From Candidatus Thorarchaeota archaeon (GTDB lineage Archaea > Asgardarchaeota > Thorarchaeia > Thorarchaeales > Thorarchaeaceae): a DNA stretch of 64,000 nt. Under the pieces are notes generated by a model that was given only the letters and a program-made list of their open reading frames with translations, was not told the origin of the DNA and made no database searches. Each line of letters starts with the position of its first letter. The stretch's first letter is position 1. Shown here piece by piece: positions 45,024-61,135 of this stretch. The DNA lies in assembly GCA_963726195.1 (NCBI GenBank), contig CAVSBO010000003.1, positions 736,001 through 800,000 of the forward strand. The letters run 5' to 3'. The position numbers were made by a program, and so were the translations under genes.

Positions 45024-46247
45024 TTGTCAGAAACACGGCGTCTGTTGTTGGATTACGAAACCGATGAAGTTGGTCGGCTGGCCAAGGATGATTCGAGAAT
45101 TCGAGCAGCTCTCATCCAAGCCTTTTCTGATTCATCTGAAATCGTTAGAGAGAGAGCCCTGTTGGCTGCAATCGAGCTCGGGGACCCTCATATTGTAACG
45201 GACGCGTCGAAGACCTTGACTGACGACGATGCTGATGTCAGAGTCGCAGCTGCTCAGCTACTGGCTTGGTATGGCCGAGCCGCGAACTGTTCCAGACCTC
45301 CTTAGGGGACTCAAGGACTCCAACACATGGGTTAGATCACACTGCGCTGCGGGGCTGTCAAAGCTCTTCCTGGCCCAACTTGGGCTCGTGTGCCCAGCAA
45401 GGACATCGACCTATTGGTCTCAGGCCTTCCCGGAATGAGTAATGACGACGTTAGCAGGTTCCTTACCGGACTGGGCATTCAATCCCAAGCGGCAGATCGG
45501 TTCATGACATGGCGCGATGCAAAGTTCAACGTCGAAATCGACATGAGAATAATGCTTGAGGAACTCGAGGGAAAACCCATCATACTGACCGAAGAGAGGA
45601 GGCCAACCAAAGGAAAGACGGTTGAAGCTCCGGGGCTAGCAAGAGGCCTCAGTTTGTCTCCGGGGGTTGAAGCAATACTGGCAGAGCTGCCGGAGCAAAT
45701 CAGAGCTACTCTGCCTCCTGAAGACTTGAGACGCCTGAATGCTACGACGGCTAGAGAACTGGTCGACTCACTCAAGGCGTCATTTCCACGCGAATCCAAG
45801 AAGCCCATCAAAGTTCGGAGAGTCAAGAGAGTCCGGAAGGTGGCGGTTGGACAGACACGAGAGGAATTGATAGGAAGTCTGCCCGACGAAGTGAAAGAGG
45901 AAGTTTCACCAGAGATAATGGACAGTTTGACCAAAGAGGAACTTGAAGCTCTGGTCGGCAAGTCCTCCGAGGAACAGGAGGTCGAGGTGGAGATCGGAGA
46001 GGAAGCCGCTCTGACAGAAGTCGCTGAAGAGCCAAAGGTAGTGGTCGCGAAAGTAGCTTCAGCACCGAGCACACAACAAGCTGATCCGCGTTGGCAGGAA
46101 TTGGTGACTGCTTACGGAGAGGCTAAAGCATACCTGCTCATACAAGTTCCACCCCACATGTTGGAAGGGCTACCGCCCGAACAGATACGGGAAATGGACA
46201 TGGACACTCTCAAGAGCCTCACTGACGCACTCAAGCCTAGGGAATAG
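45024..46247 (+). CDS. HEAT/PBS-repeat protein with repeated LP-x-E/Q helical motifs; frameshifts near 45270 and 45375
   Basis: DSSEIVRERAL, DDDADVRVAAAQLL, DSNTWVRSHCAAGL repeats; three LPxx(I/V/L)xxxxxPExxxx units. Confidence 0.7.
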
Positions 46248-46250
46248 GTA

Positions 46251-47522
46251 TCACTCTTTGCCGCGTATAACGATCGCAAACTCACTCGCAAGTCGCCCGT
46301 ACCATTCCAGAAGGTCCCGCATGTTGTCAACATGCCTGTAGGTACCATTGCCGTGGTCTGCCATAGCTAGCATGAGCTCTTCGTCAATCTCGCTCCGTTC
46401 ACCCAAGCCGATGCAATATACGACAAACTTCCTGTGACCAGAGAATCGTTCTTTCAGAATCTTCAGTGGAGCGGGCCCAGTAGTAGTCATTCCATCGGTC
46501 AGCATGATAAGCATAGTCGGTTTCTTGGGGTCACCAAAGGCGTCGAGTATCTCGCCAGCCTTCATCAGTGCATCTCCCATATTGGTGAGCGTGCCGCCCT
46601 CCTCCACCTTGTCGATGACATGCGTACTAATGACTTGTAGACCTAGGGCCTTGTTCTTTCCCGTGCATTCAACATACGGTCTTACGTCACCTGTGTCCGG
46701 GTCCATGAAAGTCATTTCACTTACTCCCTTTTCGAAAGTGATAACGGCCACTTTTTCACCATAGCCCCGGCCTACCTTTTCGGCAAGGTATAGTAGAACA
46801 GCCATCGCCGCGGCCTCGGCGCGGGTGACGCTCGTGCCTTCCTCGAATCGGTCTAGAAAAGCTTGGACGTCCGGATTGTCGCCGGCGAGGTCTTTGAGCC
46901 CCTCCCTTGCGTGAGCGATATCTTTCACGGGTACGTCGCCAGTCTTCATCGAACCGCTTGTATCGATGCAAAGGATTGCATTGAATGGCGTTGATATCCC
47001 CACAGTCTTGAACTGATAACCAGTCTTGTTCCTCAATGCCTCGAAGGCGAGCTTCGCGAAATTCCTGCCAGTAAGGGCCGGTCTTGTATTCAGTATCTCA
47101 ACCTTGACTCCTAGCTCGGGCCAGCTAAATGACATTCCCGGGTACACGAGCCGCCCTCCAATGAGCTTCTCAAGTGAGGACACTTTTTCCGCTGCGCGTG
47201 TCACGAGATCCTCGGTATTGGCATCCTCAGTTAGAGGCTTGAGGCCGAACTCGACGTAGTCAAGAGCAGTCATGGGGCGGTCGTACAGTGTCACATCAAC
47301 CCTATCGCCCTCCATCAACAAGGACGCTTCCAGCACAAGGCTGTCGACTATCATCTTGTTCTGAGGGACATCGGGGCTCTTTCGAATCTCGGCGGCGCCC
47401 CAGAAACCGCTCTCAGGATCTTCAAATAGCACGATGGAACCGATATCCGCTTTGAGAGTCTCAGCGGTTTTGGGATGAAGGCTCGCATAGCCCTTTAGCT
47501 CTCCGCCGTCGACGATTTCCAA
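46251..47522 (-). CDS. CDC48/VAT-N-like (double-psi barrel + beta-clam) domain fused to vWA domain with intact MIDAS
   Basis: ASLHPKTAETLKADIGSIV...MIVDSLVLEASLLMEGDRVDV; LIGGRLVYPGM; ILCIDTSGSM, TNMGDAL, LTDG, YCIGLG. The true start may be a few codons upstream. Confidence 0.75.
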   Translation of the reverse strand: MEIVDGGELKGYASLHPKTAETLKADIGSIVLFEDPESGFWGAAEIRKSPDVPQNKMIVDSLVLEASLLMEGDRVDVTLYDRPMTALDYVEFGLKPLTEDANTEDLVTRAAEKVSSLEKLIGGRLVYPGMSFSWPELGVKVEILNTRPALTGRNFAKLAFEALRNKTGYQFKTVGISTPFNAILCIDTSGSMKTGDVPVKDIAHAREGLKDLAGDNPDVQAFLDRFEEGTSVTRAEAAAMAVLLYLAEKVGRGYGEKVAVITFEKGVSEMTFMDPDTGDVRPYVECTGKNKALGLQVISTHVIDKVEEGGTLTNMGDALMKAGEILDAFGDPKKPTMLIMLTDGMTTTGPAPLKILKERFSGHRKFVVYCIGLGERSEIDEELMLAMADHGNGTYRHVDNMRDLLEWYGRLASEFAIVIRGKE

Positions 47523-47606
47523 GGTGAGTTTCTTAACGATACCGCGTTCCTCCGCCGAGATGACGGTGGATGGTCAGACTCTGATGTTATAAACAATTTC
47601 ACGCTA

Positions 47607-49121
47607 CTACTTCGTTTTGAGTGTCTCTAACACCTCGTCCGAGAGCGTATCAAACGAGTCTGCATACACAGTATGTTCATCGAGACTCTTTAGCAGAAGA
47701 GGCTCGGACCCCGGTAAGCCTAACCCGGTTGCGTTCGATCCCACGCCACCGCATGTGCTTGTCACTGCAAAACTGACGAGTTTGTCGGAACGGCGTCGCA
47801 CCCAAATGTGAAGCTCTTCAGCATCAGACCTTGACCTCAGCGTCAAGACGTAGCAATCAGCATCGACCCCACCTGCTGATGCCGTGGGTGACGCTTCAGG
47901 AGCCGCCGAGACACCCGGCGTTGGCAGAATGAGATCGAGAGACGAAACATCCCAATGCTCGTCTTTCACAACAGACATGAGGACATTCTCGAAACTATCA
48001 AGACCTTGACCCTTATCGTCTCTAAATGCGACCTGCTTAGGGCGCCGCCGACTCGTGCCACGTGTCGCAAAGGGCTTCTGTACTAAGTGGAGCGCGTTTT
48101 CTCCAAGTATTCTCTGGATATCCGATGAGTTTCCAATGAAATCCCTTGATAGTAAGTGCAAAATAGCTTCGGCCGCGTGAAGCGAGAAGAAACTGTAGTC
48201 AGTCCCAAAGAGGATTTTGCTGGACCAACTACTCGTGGACCCGACATTGTGTTCATGCGCCGTCTCCATCAACACCGGGAGGTCCTGACCATGAAGACCT
48301 GAAGTCTCAGTGAAGAAGACGGGGTCCATGAGAGTCTCATGGAGAAATGAATCGCCGGGACTCATGGCAGAATGTGCGACTATGATGTGCATTCCGGCCA
48401 GGCTTTCTGCGCATGATTCGTCTGAGCGCATTCCGTCCACGAGGTTCTTTATCCTTCTGACAGTCCTGATGTTCCTAGCGTCGAATATCACGGGAACTCG
48501 CAGCTCTCCGGCTTTTTTCACCACTCGTTTTGTTATGTCGTCTTCAATGTCATCCAGAAACAATTGAGCTAGCGGGTGCAACTTGAGACCGCGTAGTCCT
48601 AGCTGTGTGACTGCTCTCTGTAATTCTCGGACCGCTGTCTCAGCGCCAATTGTCCTCGCATCCGTAGGGTCAACGCGTGCAAAACCGATGAGCCGTGTTG
48701 AGTGAGGAGCTCTTGTCGTCCAGCTCGCGATTCTGTCATTTGAGAGCTTGAATGAGGCTACTAACTTGTTGTCGCTCTTGGCATAGTCGTCGGAGAAGGG
48801 AAACACTACTGTCCTATCGACAAGCCAGCCATGATTCATCTCAGCCCAGCTTTTTCTCAAATTGAAGCACTTTGAAACCACATGCAGCGGCTCGACATCC
48901 AAAGGCTCATAGAGGAGCTCATCCTTCTCAAGCCGCTCCTTGGCCATTCGCCGCAACTCGAACCAAAGAAGGGAGTAGAATGAGTAAGCTCCAGCAGGCG
49001 TGTTTTGGTGGCTGCCCTCACGTCCCATGTGATGATGAGCATCAACCACGTAGAACCGGAACACGTCTCCTTTCTTTATCCCATGCTCAGGTTGATCCTC
49101 AACGGCGCGGACAACGAGCAT
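47607..49121 (-). CDS. Amidohydrolase_2-family TIM-barrel metallohydrolase with C-terminal extension
   Basis: VDAHHHMG, IGFARVDP, LRGLKLHP, IVAH, ETS, ILFGTDY, ILGENA. Confidence 0.85.
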   Translation of the reverse strand: MLVVRAVEDQPEHGIKKGDVFRFYVVDAHHHMGREGSHQNTPAGAYSFYSLLWFELRRMAKERLEKDELLYEPLDVEPLHVVSKCFNLRKSWAEMNHGWLVDRTVVFPFSDDYAKSDNKLVASFKLSNDRIASWTTRAPHSTRLIGFARVDPTDARTIGAETAVRELQRAVTQLGLRGLKLHPLAQLFLDDIEDDITKRVVKKAGELRVPVIFDARNIRTVRRIKNLVDGMRSDESCAESLAGMHIIVAHSAMSPGDSFLHETLMDPVFFTETSGLHGQDLPVLMETAHEHNVGSTSSWSSKILFGTDYSFFSLHAAEAILHLLSRDFIGNSSDIQRILGENALHLVQKPFATRGTSRRRPKQVAFRDDKGQGLDSFENVLMSVVKDEHWDVSSLDLILPTPGVSAAPEASPTASAGGVDADCYVLTLRSRSDAEELHIWVRRRSDKLVSFAVTSTCGGVGSNATGLGLPGSEPLLLKSLDEHTVYADSFDTLSDEVLETLKTK

Positions 49122-49285
49122 CTACGCTCTTCTCCGTCAGACCTAATGCCAGTGTTCGTGATAAACATTTCATGTCAGTGACTCTGTCATCCGGACAAGA
49201 CCGGTTTGATGCGGTGCTCTCTGCATTAGGCATATATCGTTAGGCGCTGTGAACGATGCCATCGGCCAGAGTGGAGCTTGATTGA

Positions 49286-51947
49286 ATGATAGTCGTTGAG
49301 GACATCGAAAGCAGGGAAATCAAACCCTTGTTTATCGCCGACTCATTCGTTCAGCTCGGATTAGTCAGAGCCGGGACCGAAGTCCGTTCATTTGACCCCG
49401 GCAGGATACTATCCTTCTATGGCATGCTCGAAGGGCAGCTCCACGACTTGGCATCAAGGTATCCGGGGGCATTCAAGCATCTTCCTCGCAAAGCCTACGC
49501 CTATCTGAAGCGTCCCCCAATCTTGACCGAGATTCATTCCAGCGGCCTGGATCCTTCCAACACTAGCTGGTTTGTTGACCTGTTCTTTGCAAGACCCCTG
49601 ATATCCATTGGGGGGCAACAGACTTTCTGAACAGCATCAGAACAAGAATGCCGAACTAACCCGGAGGTGGTCTGAGCAGCTGCCTCACAGTCCTCGGTTC
49701 TACTATCTTCAGGATATGCGTCAAGGGAGAATCGGCTCACCAGGATGGGGTTGTGTTCTCAGTCCGACCGACTTGGGAAACTCACAGAGTGGGCCGAGTG
49801 GCTCGGAGCTCCGTCGATATGTGGAATCGGGATTACCAGTATTCATGGAGTGGACAAGTATGATGATCTGGATCTCTTGGTCAAGTGGTTAGTAGAGCTG
49901 AAAGAATGCCAAGATGGGCAGTCCAAATCTGATGCTTTCTGTACGGAGTTACAAGGAGTGGGGCGAGGGAATAACGAAGTTGCTCGAAATCCCGAGCGCC
50001 AGATTGCTGACCTCCGGGGCAACGATAGGGTTGCTCTCCACAGTAATATCACACCTTCGGAAGAACACTGACATCGTTCCATGGTCCAGCAAGCTCGTCT
50101 TCGGTAGCGGGTATCCTGAGACTCACACAGGTGATAGCATATCTGAGGTGTTGAGCTTCCTATTGAGTCGGAACTTGGCCGCTTCCACGGATGACCTGCA
50201 GCGGATATTTGCCACCAACTTGCTGTCAGTTCTGCCTCCGAGACCTCCTTTCCTCGACTACCGGAGCAGCAATGACACAGTGGTGTCAGAAGGAATGTTT
50301 GGTAAGGCATGTATCAAAGAACTGGCAAGAGTGCTTCTTTTGCTAGCGACAAAGGGAAGGCTCTATGTCTACTCTGTCGATCATATGCTGTCCAGTGACA
50401 GTGGCTCCGTAGACCTAAACTGCGGGATTGTTACTCTGAAGGACCCCGCCTCTTTGACCGCAAGTAGTCTGGCTATCCTCATCGAACGCGACGGCACTCT
50501 CAGGATTGCTGGTTGGCGAAACGCCTTTGGAGAAACTTCATCATCGAGAAGAAGCGAAGTTCTGGCGACACTGATCAGGGCCTCAACTCACTCCAGCGGT
50601 CCGATTCTGACTTCGCCGGCCCACTTGAGCCAATTCGATTGGGCGGTCCTAAGATGCCTTCAACTGAAGGATTCACAGGAAGTCCTCTCTTCTCTGCACT
50701 TCAAGGTGGAGCCAGATGATGTCCAGCCGCGACTTGTTGTTGTATCGCGTGATGATATGAATGCTCTCGGCCTATCTGAAGGGGATACTGTGCTAGCCCT
50801 AGTTGGAGGCACTGGAGAATGGTTATCGGCCAAGGCTGCACGGCACGAAGGCCCGAGCAGGCGGGTCCTGATATCCAGAAAGGACGCGCTCCTCTTTGGG
50901 CTCAGCGACCGGACTTTGGTAGATCTGGTGAAATACGAAGGCCATGTTTCTGAACTCGATGAGGCAGTGTTTTCATTCTCAATCTCCAAGCGATGGCCCG
51001 ATGGAGAACTCTCATCCTATATCTATCTGCATGATAAGCCTCTTAGAAGAGAACTTGAGAACCGAGCGTTAGGACTTGGCATGAAACTGAGGATCGGAAG
51101 AGGAGAGCACAAGCTAACCCTGAGCTTAGCTCATACAGAACCTGAACTTGTGCCTGGACAAGTTGGCGTCGCTCCTTCATCCGCAATATCATTCTGGCCA
51201 GCTCAGCTGCTCGAAGATGTGAATATCATCCTGTGTCTTCTAAATGACCAAAGCATGAAAACCAGAGACGTTAGAATAAGAACTGTGTCTTCTGCTCAGA
51301 GAAGGTTCACTCGCTTCTCTGGTCAAATGCCCGAGCTCGGTGCTTTCCTTTCCAGACTCGGAGCGCAGGCAACTCGGGCTGAACTGGCAGGCCTGATTTC
51401 CCTGTTGACAATCCAACAAATGTCTGCAAACCGTACCGAAGGACGCCTTGCCTTTGTAAGTATCTCGGACCAAGCACACAAGTACTGCATTCAGAAGGGG
51501 GGTCAAGTGCAGCCCTATGCCGAGTTCCTTCACGACCTGTCGACTCGCGAAGTCCTGATCTCACTTGTCTATTCTGTACTGGATTCGCTCGGTGAAGCTG
51601 ACAAGCAGTTAAACGTGGCGGCGGTCTATCATTCTGTTGCTGAGCTCTTGCAAGAATTCGGGACTGAAAGGCCTACTCTGGTCATAGTCATTGGAAATCA
51701 GCTGAAAGGCAATGAAGAAGAAGTTGAACCCTTCTTGAGCCGATTCTCGGAACTCGGCCGTTATCAGATGGACATTCTTGGCCTTGGAGATGACTTTGAT
51801 GCTAGGGAAACCCGCAAGATGGTCAAATCTCTGAACGCCCGCATAATCCCCATCAAGTCCTTCTCTGCGCAGCTCTATGATGATTACTTGCTGTCCGCCA
51901 TCGGTCGGCTATTGTCGGACAAGGCTCAAACCGGACCAAGTGACTAG
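49286..51947 (+). CDS. Fusion protein: degenerate amidohydrolase + CDC48-N-like + degenerate vWA; frameshifts near 49615, 49775 and 49910
   Basis: Four overlapping ORF pieces whose segments align by eye with the two minus-strand neighbours (see finding). Confidence 0.7.
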
Positions 51948-51975: not shown

Positions 51976-53106
51976 CTAAGTGATCATAGTCTGGTAAGTC
52001 TGGACAGCTGCCGTCTTCGATCCACAGAGAACTTCCACTCTCAAACTCGCCTTGCCCTTCTCATCCGACATCGCGATGAGCCCAACGTTGATGGTCTCGT
52101 CTGCTCTCGGGTTGATTTCATGCAGCTCATTCGCTATCTCGGACACCCCGTCAGATGTGATGAGACTAGCGACGATTCGAATCCCGACGTGTGCAGGACT
52201 AGGGTTTCGCACTCTGATTCTGAATGGAAAAGACTTACCCGGCAGTATTGTGTTCGGCACGTTTCCAAGTTCCACGGTGAGGCTTGTTTGAGATGGTGTC
52301 AGTGGTCGGCCACTTGGCCAAGCAGGAATTCGTCCTCAGCTCAATGAGCCTCGACAACGAGGTCTTGAATGCCCTAACTTCCAGGCCAAGCTCAGTCGCC
52401 GCTTCGCCTATATCGAAAACACCATCGTGAGAGACGTAGTGAGCAAGAATGCGCCGGTCGACTTCGATAAGGTCGCCCAAGCCCTCAAGTATTGTTAGGA
52501 TTGCCTCGGGAAGCTGGTAGGCTTCCGTTAGAGAATAGTACTTTCCACCATCAACAGACTCAGCAATGCTTCTGAAAGATTGCTCCACTAACGGATTGCA
52601 GACCGCAGACAAAAACGAACATCGTGTCGCCGTGAAGTCTCTTCAGCGACTGGACCTCAGACCGAGGATCATGTCCGTCGGGGCATCCGTCAGGGAAGTA
52701 GTCATCTGCGAGTGTGTTGTAGGTTCTCCCGTGAGGAGGCGCATCACCCACCAGAAGGAGGACCTTGTATGAATCCTTCTCCCACGAGAGCTTGGTTCGA
52801 GCATCGTAGAGACCGTCAGCTGACTGCCTCTGGGATATCGCCACCTTCAGACGGATTCAACGCCGAGATTTCCTTGTATACTGACTTGATCTTGTCAGTA
52901 AAATCGAAGACGCGCGTGACGTATGTGTAATCTTGTGGTGGATGGTCGCGATAAGAAACAATCCCGAATCGGATGTGCAATCCCTTTGTCCTTTCCACAA
53001 CTTTGTCCACTATTCGGAAAAGACTGTCTCGTACTGCATTTATGTCGTCCTTCATCGACCCCGTGGTATCGACAACGAAGGCGATATCCAGGTTCGTTTC
53101 TGCCAG
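51976..53106 (-). CDS. vWA domain + wHTH + Ig-like domain protein; frameshifts near 52820, 52610 and 52320
   Basis: NLDIAFVVDTTGSM, FGIVSYRDHPPQD, GGDIPEAV-ADGL, VGDAPPHG, DGCP; then DIGEAATELGL wHTH; then LPGKSFPFRIRVRNP beta-sandwich. Start codon uncertain (CTG after GGAGTGA). Confidence 0.75.
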
Positions 53107-53635: not shown

Positions 53636-54187
53636 CTATGTTCGTTCGAGGTTCCTGATAAGAGCCTCGACCTTGTCCGCCAATTCCTCTGACGGATCAA
53701 CTGTGATTCCGGGATCGTGTGTCTCGATGACAACTTCCATTCCCGAATCAGTGACTTTCTTGAACCCCATCCTAGACGTCGCTCTTACCCTCAACTGAGT
53801 TGTATCGAACTCTGTCTTGTGAGTGGTGCCGACGGTCTGGGATTCCCTCGGGGTTTTCGGTCTCATCAGCCGGAGTTGTTCCTTGAGCTCCGCAACTTCA
53901 ACCTGTAGCTGGTTCTTCATTGTTATGGCATCGCTCAATCTGCCCTTCACTGCTTCGTGCTCCGAACGCTGAACATAATCGGCAGAACGGTCAACCCACA
54001 TTAGTGTGGTTCCATCGGATTTCCGCTTGGTCGTCACAAGGCCCAACGTCTTGAGAACCGCGACTATGTCGTACACTCTTCTCTTGGGGCTTTCAAGCAT
54101 GCCAGCCAACACGTCACTGCGAATACCCTGGGGTCCGGCCTCTTCGATGAGCTCAATGGATTTGTGGGCCAACTCGACGAGCTTCAA
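53636..54187 (-). CDS. E2F/DP-like winged-helix protein with coiled coil and C-terminal beta region
   Basis: LAHKSIELI...LAGMLESPKRRVYDIVAVLKTLGLV...TLMWV matches the E2F/DP DNA-binding pattern (KRRIYDITNVLEGIGLI..W); TTG start after GGGGTGA. Confidence 0.75.
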   Translation of the reverse strand: MKLVELAHKSIELIEEAGPQGIRSDVLAGMLESPKRRVYDIVAVLKTLGLVTTKRKSDGTTLMWVDRSADYVQRSEHEAVKGRLSDAITMKNQLQVEVAELKEQLRLMRPKTPRESQTVGTTHKTEFDTTQLRVRATSRMGFKKVTDSGMEVVIETHDPGITVDPSEELADKVEALIRNLERT

Positions 54188-54494
54188 AGTTTCACCCCAA
54201 GTTCAGTGGCGGCGGTTCTCTCCTCAGACCAGCTCTTCTTGTGATACAGCCCATGTTGTATTTAGGTGTTTCGCGACTGGCCCATATCAAAAACAAACGC
54301 ACGCTTTTTCGAGTGCTCTCACTTGAGGAGGAGTGTCGTTTGCGCAATCAGTGCCCAAGGTATTTGCACTCAATGCATCAAGAGGATAGTGCGCAGTCAC
54401 CAGCAGTCAGCGTGAGTTGGCGACACCGATACTTTATTACGTAGTCACAAGCGCTCCACGCGCGACAACTACTACATGAAGGGCGGCATATAGG

Positions 54495-55827
54495 ATGAGC
54501 AAGATCAAAGTCATAATCATGGGTGCAGCAGGCCGTGACTTTCATAATTTCAACGTTCACTTCAGAGACAATGAACAGTACGAGGTTGTGGCCTTCACCG
54601 CAGAACAAATCCCGGGAATCGAAGACAGAATCTATCCTCCAGAGCTGGCTGGGAAACTGTATCCAAAGGGCATCAAGATATACCCTGAGCAGAAACTTCC
54701 GGAGCTAATACAGAAGTTCGATGTGCAGCAATGCATCTTGGCATACTCTGACTTGCCATACGACACAGTCGGTCACAAGATAGCTCTGGTCAACTCATCT
54801 GGTCCGGACATGCGTCTCATGGGCCCAAAGACGACCATGCTCAAGAGCACGAAGCCAGTGATTGCAGTCTGCGCTGTGAGGACAGGTTGTGGAAAGAGCC
54901 AGACGTCAAGAAAAGTGAATTCAATCCTCGTGCAAATGGGACTGAAGCCCGTCAACGTGAGACACCCCATGCCGTATGACCCTGACCTTAGAACTCAGAT
55001 TGCTCAACGATATGCCCGTCTTGAGGACATGGACAAATACAACTGTACAATCGAAGAGCGCGAGGAGTATGAGCCCATGATCAACGCCGGTGTCATACTC
55101 TACGCTGGCGTCGACTACGGGAAAATCCTTGAGATGGCGCAGAAAGAAGACTGATGTGATAACTTGGGACGGAGGAAACAATGATTTTCCATTCTACAAG
55201 CCAGATCTTCATATCGTGATTACCGACCCACACAGGCCTGGCCACGAGGTCAGTTACTACCCTGGCGAGACTAATCTCAGAATGGCTGACGTTGTTATAA
55301 TAAACAAGATTGACACCGCCAACTACGATAATGTTGAGAAAGTCAGAGAGAATATCATAAAGACCAACCCGCGCGCGATCATCATAGATGCCGCTTCACC
55401 CTTGACCGTCGGCGATGTTTCAGTCATCCGTGGCAAGAGAGTAATAGCCATTGAAGATGGGCCCACAGTCACTCATGGTGGCATGCCTTACGGAGCGGCA
55501 TACATTGCTGTGCGCAAGCACGGAGGAACAATCGTTGACCCAAGACCGTTCGCGGTCGGAAGTATTCGGGATACGTTCCAGAAGTACACGCACTTGAGAG
55601 AAGTGCTACCAGCTATGGGGTACGGCAAGAAACAGATACAAGAACTCGAAGAGACCATAAACAAATCTGATGTAGACTCTATTGTGGTCGGGACCCCCAT
55701 AGACTTGACACGTATTCTGAAGATGAACAAACCAAGCACGAGAGTGAAGTACGATCTTCAGGAGATTGGCAAACCGGACTTGACTGACGTATTGGCGGAT
55801 TTCGTGAAGAAGCACAAACTCAAGTAG
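54495..55827 (+). CDS. COG2403 P-loop ligase (cDPG-synthetase-like / arginine synthetase ArcE family), frameshift near 55150
   Basis: MGAAGRDFHNFN, AVRTGCGKSQTSR, RHPMPY, TIEEREEYEP, WDGGNND, EDGPT.THGGM. Confidence 0.85.
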
Positions 55828-60496: not shown

Positions 60497-61135
60497 GTGC
60501 TCCAAGCCGTGTACATACTCATTGCGGACTCGGGACTTTGCGTGTTAGACAGGAAGTATGGTACCGCTGATATGGACCCGAACCTAATTAGCGGCTTCTT
60601 GACAGCTCTCATTCAGTTTGGGCGAGAGCTGAGCGACGGCAACAGAGTGCATGTCATAGACTTTGGAGCATTCGACATATGTCTATCATTGCGGGACAAC
60701 GTAATAGTCGCTGCCTCAGTGGATAAGACTGACGACAGCAACGCAGCAATGGCCGTGCTGTCTGATGTCAATCACGAGTTCGTCGAAACGTACAGTGATG
60801 TCTTGGCCAAGTGGGACGGCAACCTGGAACCTTTTGAGAAGTTCACCAAGAAGCTTGACGAAATAACTAAGGATGGTCGCGCCTCGGAGAAGAGAATCAT
60901 AGTGCCGGTGCTGAAGGGGAAGGTATCGCCTATGCTAGTAAGACTTGGACAATTGAGCCAAGAGTCCTTTCAGGTCGGGCAAATGTGCAAGGGAAAGCTC
61001 ACGACAAAGGCTATTGCTGACCAACTGGGCATGCCATTGAAACAGGTCCAGAAAGCGTTACAGACACTTGAGGACATGAAGATGCTCGTCTGGAAGCAGA
61101 TCGGAGAGTCAGCTTCCTATCCCGGCACGACATGA
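60497..61135 (+). CDS. Longin-domain protein with C-terminal wHTH
   Basis: VYIL..SGLCVL...DPNLISGFLTALIQFGREL...EFVETY...WDGNLEPFEKF; C-terminal TTKAIADQLGM...LQTLEDMKML. Confidence 0.8.
   Translation: MLQAVYILIADSGLCVLDRKYGTADMDPNLISGFLTALIQFGRELSDGNRVHVIDFGAFDICLSLRDNVIVAASVDKTDDSNAAMAVLSDVNHEFVETYSDVLAKWDGNLEPFEKFTKKLDEITKDGRASEKRIIVPVLKGKVSPMLVRLGQLSQESFQVGQMCKGKLTTKAIADQLGMPLKQVQKALQTLEDMKMLVWKQIGESASYPGTT

Follow-up and report, generated by a model that had tools for sequence, protein, structure and literature searches.

A gene on the reverse strand of a 64,000-nucleotide (nt) stretch of DNA from Candidatus Thorarchaeota archaeon (GenBank assembly GCA_963726195.1, contig CAVSBO010000003.1, positions 736,001 to 800,000; the whole stretch is referred to below as the window) encodes a 183-amino-acid (aa) protein that is a Thorarchaeia member of the Asgard E2F/DP family. 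We conclude, with a probability of about 0.72, that this protein is a homodimeric, probably activating, E2F-type regulator of deoxyribonucleotide (dNTP) supply, the dimer being predicted and the DNA binding putative.

A Thorarchaeia member of the Asgard E2F/DP family

Sequence profiles assign the N-terminal region to the E2F/DP DNA-binding domain (DBD), as the sequence-only reading had proposed from the RRVYD motif and the winged-helix pattern. PF02319 scored 35.8 bits (E 6.9e-9; curated cut-off 25.7), against 13.6-14.6 bits for the runner-up winged-helix families Cdc6_C, HTH_69 and TrmB, the last of which (PF01978, 13.6 bits) lies below its own cut-off of 25.6. R36, R37, Y39, D40 and A43 do not vary across 42 Thorarchaeia sequences. 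A profile built from 42 orthologues retrieved E2F8 (4yo2, E 3.2e-7) and E2F4 (1cf7, E 0.005) as the top PDB entries, and among 1.8 billion proteins it retrieved Asgard relatives first, followed by eukaryotic E2Fs; the non-Asgard matches that were checked were eukaryotic E2Fs. The sequence match is beyond chance, because 159 homologues of the protein were found at E<=0.001, and the nearest of them carry the name Thorarchaeota, in line with the Asgard origin surmised earlier. Hits to generic archaeal winged helices with no preference for E2F had been named beforehand as evidence that would speak against this assignment. Structure searches were indeed headed by such proteins, the TrmB, ArsR and MarR regulators, which have the same winged-helix fold, whereas the sequence profiles clearly favour E2F.

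The TTG start codon is preceded by GGGGTG and yields the length found in most Thorarchaeia orthologues, and the translation contains the N-terminus, RRVYD, Trp64, heptad segment and beta block previously noted. Whether such homologues had been catalogued, a question left open by the sequence-only reading, can be answered: they had. E2F/DP proteins across Asgard groups were published by Eme 2023 (Nature 618:992, PMC10307638, Suppl. 4.1.5; arCOG02749), with a supplement of 151 sequence entries labelled PF02319; that study already suggested similar DNA motifs, stated that the dimerisation domain is missing and named no targets, and a review (PMC7617429) repeats the presence of E2F in Asgard archaea as a hint of pre-eukaryotic cell-cycle transcription. 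The gene described here, which carries PF02319 and groups with the other Asgard copies, is a member of this catalogued family and not of a new one.

A predicted homodimer with a conserved beta domain

The AlphaFold2 model consists of helices at residues 3-47, wing strands at 51-64, a long helix at 74-108, five strands at 126-164 and a final helix. Two copies were predicted to pair with an ipSAE of 0.52, compared to 0.00 for the best control, a mark passed by 20 of 30 solved homodimers and by 1 of 23 monomers, although the pass may owe something to likeness with solved E2F/DP complexes; contact agreement between runs was at least 85% and pLDDT at least 76. The predicted interface comprises DBD helices 1 and 3, a parallel coiled coil with symmetric heptad contacts at residues 77, 80, 84, 87, 91, 94, 98, 101 and 105, and the whole beta domain (interface residues 119-166, with cross-chain strand contacts at 132-154). 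Both the coiled coil behind the DBD and the homodimer, previously proposed from the letters of the gene, are thus recovered in the model.

The beta domain was found in all 82 Thorarchaeia loci and in 39 of 48 other Asgard loci, at times without the coiled coil. The remaining loci (L009, L015, L020, L163, L164, L168, L169, L174 and L178) form a second class of paralogues, which share the RRxYD domain but have a different tail, an unrelated C-terminal domain; in genomes that hold both classes, heterodimers are conceivable. Thorarchaeia orthologues end about 18 residues past the beta domain and have no transactivation or pocket-protein-binding tail. In functional terms, the predicted dimer makes it probable that the claim of a missing dimerisation region in Asgard E2F proteins is mistaken, however the homology of the beta domain is judged.

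That homology is harder to settle. The sequence-only reading had recognized the order of the E2F coiled-coil/marked-box (CC-MB) region, and the order holds: the layout is shared with DP, namely coiled coil, linker, short beta strands and final helix. No sequence or structure score for marked-box homology was significant. Neither marked-box profile (PF16421 or PF08781) gave a Pfam match to the 183-aa protein; the best local profile alignments, which matched the fourth strand of the E2F and of the DP marked box in register, were weak and none was significant; and the global profile score of the beta domain against E2F (4.56), although close to that of DP against E2F (4.65), was not significant either. 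Foldseek placed the E2F1 CC-MB chain 2aze_B at rank 34 among only 92 chains returned out of 350,542, again without significance (E 7.8, TM 0.34, root-mean-square deviation 3.9 A over 40 columns). Taken with the intertwined dimer, the shared layout, the in-register strand, the DP-like score and the presence of 2aze_B in so short a return incline us slightly towards genuine homology with the E2F/DP marked box, in which case the DBD-coiled coil-marked box architecture would predate eukaryotes and the heterodimer would have arisen by duplication of a homodimer, a history compatible with the regulator proposed here. There is a substantial, if smaller, chance that the beta domain is instead a dimerisation module of archaea without relation to the marked box, perhaps a swapped hairpin like that of AbrB/VapB, which became joined to an E2F-type DBD, and that eukaryotes gained the marked box separately.

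Conserved E2F-type sites at dNTP-synthesis genes

Thymidylate synthase and ribonucleotide reductase are classic eukaryotic E2F targets. In 30 Thorarchaeia genomes, chosen by protein match, TTSGCGC occurs in either orientation within ~330 nt upstream of the thymidylate synthase gene (thyA) in 28; the genomes are kin, so that this and the following counts are not independent and measure conservation, not probability. The consensus, (T)TTGGCGC(G/C), is kept in otherwise divergent DNA, and the same divergent promoter region also serves a ribonucleotide reductase operon of thioredoxin-like, ATP-cone and NrdD genes (C7:117284 in the own genome). Searching for the palindrome revealed a second candidate target, gene X, which encodes an uncharacterised protein of ~250 aa with a lysine-rich N-terminus (C4:278849-279643): the site lies upstream of 30/30 orthologues checked, nearly always as the full TTGGCGCCAAA palindrome. 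Its distance to a second conserved element of the promoter is nearly constant (131-143 nt), while the neighbours upstream differ. The promoter of the sdhA/frdA flavoprotein gene carries the site in 16/30 genomes, compared to 2/30 for an APRT-like control promoter. Background frequency was 3.6% of 1999 windows of 330 nt, with the full palindrome in 0/1999, and 7.4% of upstream regions in the own genome. The conserved sites lie ~60-110 nt upstream of likely TATA boxes. According to Morgunova 2015 (PMC4686757), E2F homodimers recognise GGCGCC, and E2F/DP and E2F8 recognise TTGGCGGGAA, with A/T flanks.

Gene X (L260:4850-5644; G000 C4:278849-279643, reverse strand) is present in Thorarchaeia and in a further three or four Asgard families, has no Pfam or PDB match and may resemble RdgC/TBP-like folds in its pattern. 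Its promoter is complex and conserved (L261-L309): the second element, TTCCAnTGGAAnnnGAGGTnAGT, stands downstream of TATA in Thorarchaeia and other families and occurs twice in one Asgard family without E2F, and Thorarchaeia have a third, ATAC..GTAT-like element between E2F site and TATA.

The E2F homologue as putative reader of the site

Outside Thorarchaeia, 13 of 32 loci have E2F-type sites in front of the E2F gene itself, compared to 8 of 469 background windows; they include 5 of 8 Heimdallarchaeia loci, exact TTTGGCGGGAAA being among the sites there, and 4/4, 2/2 and 1/1 loci in three further families. In both G036 and G048, no intergenic match in the genome is clearer than the one at the E2F gene. 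Together with the palindromic form of the site and the symmetry of the predicted dimer, this pattern of apparent self-regulation makes the E2F homologue the likeliest, putative reader of the conserved site.

Several observations weigh against this assignment and against its link to dNTP supply. The self-site pattern was defined after the sequences had been inspected, and some of the loci are close kin. No E2F site was found in the 79 Thorarchaeia E2F promoters (0/79), nor at the MCM, Cdc6, PCNA and PolD promoters of the own genome. In other E2F-bearing Asgard lineages, the orthologues of gene X (0/19) and thyA-like genes (0/12) have no site and those of nrdD at most one weak case in ~15, so that the dNTP link is confined so far to Thorarchaeia and could reflect convergence. 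Four genomes (G063, G093, G134 and G176) have the site even though E2F was not found in their incomplete assemblies. The missing Thorarchaeia self-site, the site-free genes of other lineages and the additional conserved elements in the promoters would also fit a different Thorarchaeia regulator as reader of the palindrome, with other targets for the E2F-like protein. We consider this unlikely, given that the motif is the published E2F-homodimer site and that the same motif class stands at the E2F gene itself in other Asgard families.

A different motif, TCGAAAAATCG-like and often repeated, is found just before the B recognition element (BRE)/TATA in 48/79 Thorarchaeia E2F promoters (L003-L031, L181-L247); in the own genome (window about 54265-54320) it is degenerate or partly deleted relative to the genus-mate L012. 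It is probably the site of a regulator acting upstream of E2F.

Copy number, distribution and phylogeny

The own genome (88.9% complete) contains one E2F DBD and one beta domain, consistent with the single gene previously proposed and with no second paralogue. The gene was detected in 68 of 76 genomes of its family, as a single match in each. Elsewhere in the phylum its presence is patchy: E2F exceeds the cut-off in at least 14 Asgard families, in two paralogue classes, and is absent from three large ones (0/68, 0/28 and 0/21). The RB_A and RB_B pocket profiles found nothing in the own, incomplete genome, where the control gave no match either.

In an unrooted tree of 71 DBD columns, the Asgard sequences fall on one side of a branch (support 98/93) and group with canonical E2F, with DP and E2F7/8 set apart (97/94); an additional tree was built without DP. 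The idea of a precursor of E2F/DP is compatible with this topology, which fits a pre-duplication ancestor but fits an ancient transfer too. Descent of the Asgard genes from an early eukaryotic canonical E2F, with subsequent loss of the tails, would account for the union with canonical E2F and for the patchy distribution, yet it appears improbable in view of the separation of the Asgard sequences, their spread over families and paralogue classes, the derived position of DP in the same topology when rooted on Asgard, and the lack of the Asn three residues after the RRxYD aspartate, which is present in 100% of the eukaryotic rows sampled and in no Thorarchaeia row (Ala43).

One sequence, L002 / P0156 (family f14, of the Heimdallarchaeia group by its relatives), combines an unusually eukaryote-like DBD, with LEGIGLIE after RRVYD, with the Asgard beta domain. 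It is the deepest Asgard branch in both DBD trees and a good target for examining marked-box homology.

Features of the gene and its neighbourhood

Table 1. Positions of the E2F-like gene, its parts and its promoter elements in the window
Feature	Position	Strand	Details
E2F-like gene	53636..54187	-	183 aa, TTG start, intact open reading frame
E2F/DP winged-helix DBD	53990..54187	-	residues 1-66; PF02319, PDB profile matches, AlphaFold2 model
RRVYD recognition-helix motif	54068..54082	-	residues 36-40
Parallel homodimeric coiled coil (predicted)	53864..53968	-	residues 74-108; AlphaFold2 helix and symmetric dimer contacts
Five-strand beta domain	53693..53815	-	residues 125-165; predicted intertwined between two copies; candidate marked-box counterpart
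C-terminal helix	53642..53674	-	residues 172-182; Thorarchaeia; missing in several other Asgard lineages
GGGGTG ribosome-binding site	54193..54198	-	conserved in upstream regions of orthologues
TAAATA, likely TATA box for the E2F gene	54259..54264	-	assignment inferred from conservation

Two neighbouring genes are broken: a GTPase-like gene (54495-55827, forward strand) is split into 219 and 245 aa and is intact in relatives (~448 aa), and a vWA gene (52235-53055, reverse strand) is in three pieces and intact in relatives (~377 aa), which points to indel errors in the assembly. Likewise, nrdD (C7:118261-120019) appears split. Beside the vWA gene, a cluster at 45024-51947, partly syntenic in Thorarchaeia, includes a HEAT-repeat-like protein, an amidohydrolase-like gene and two CDC48-N-like / vWA-like proteins (46251-47522 and 49914-51947). 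Further along, 60497-61135 (forward strand) encodes a protein that, according to weak Pfam matches, combines a Longin-like domain with a winged helix at its C-terminus. Elsewhere in the genome (G000 C10:98060-101707, reverse strand), a 1215-aa MCM has its MCM domain in two pieces and probably contains an intein.

Discussion

Compared to canonical E2F1-6/DP (PF02319, PF16421, PF08781; PDB 1CF7, 2AZE), the Asgard protein shows the same succession of parts, from the RRxYD winged helix through the coiled coil to the beta domain, and the same site class, but it is the product of one gene, predicted to form a homodimer, instead of separate E2F and DP partners; it also differs in the Ala at the invariant Asn position, the lack of a match to the two marked-box families, the missing transactivation / Rb-binding tail and the replication promoters without sites. 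Atypical E2F7/8 (PDB 4YO2) provided the best PDB profile match and are DP-independent, and the TTTGGCGGGAAA upstream of Heimdallarchaeia E2F genes is the site that E2F7/8 prefer, but E2F7/8 carry two DBDs per chain and no coiled coil or marked box, in contrast to the single RRxYD domain here. With respect to the account of Eme 2023, what differs is the predicted homodimer with its conserved beta domain and the location of sites at thyA/nrdD, gene X, sdhA and the E2F genes of other lineages. A literature search with little coverage of subscription papers found no target, site or oligomer state for an Asgard E2F; the published work found is extended here by the sites at thyA/nrdD and at two other promoters, by the self-sites and by the predicted dimer.

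The proposed mechanism starts from what was established directly: which family the domain belongs to, how many copies the genome carries, that the beta domain is conserved, and that the sites are conserved and where they lie. Two identical copies would pair, as predicted, through their winged helices, the parallel coiled coil and the intertwined beta domain, and each of the two RRVYD helices would read half of the near-palindromic (T)TTGGCGC(C/G)AAA. We infer that this protein is the reader, that it activates and that its activity is linked to growth; activation is the most likely outcome because the sites lie upstream of likely TATA boxes. The bound dimer would then switch on a small regulon of thyA, the divergent thioredoxin-like / ATP-cone / NrdD operon, gene X and, in about half of the genomes, sdhA/frdA, and would increase the supply of dNTPs during growth, with neither DP nor Rb nor a transactivation tail involved. 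The coiled coil and beta domain may offer docking surfaces through which activity could be controlled.

The function of an ancestral E2F becomes directly testable with named promoters and a 12-bp probe, and the 183-aa homodimer would be an easy structural target for the question of whether the marked box is older than the split of E2F and DP. The conserved sites at dNTP-synthesis genes suggest that part of E2F's job predates eukaryotes. More tentatively, and with the odds against it, the complete module may be pre-eukaryotic: a single gene whose product, a homodimer made up of DBD, coiled coil and a genuine marked box, would bind TTTGGCGCCAAA and already regulate thymidylate synthase and ribonucleotide reductase. 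If so, the dNTP-supply arm of G1/S, its site and its dimer architecture would be an archaeal inheritance, to which DP and Rb were added later.
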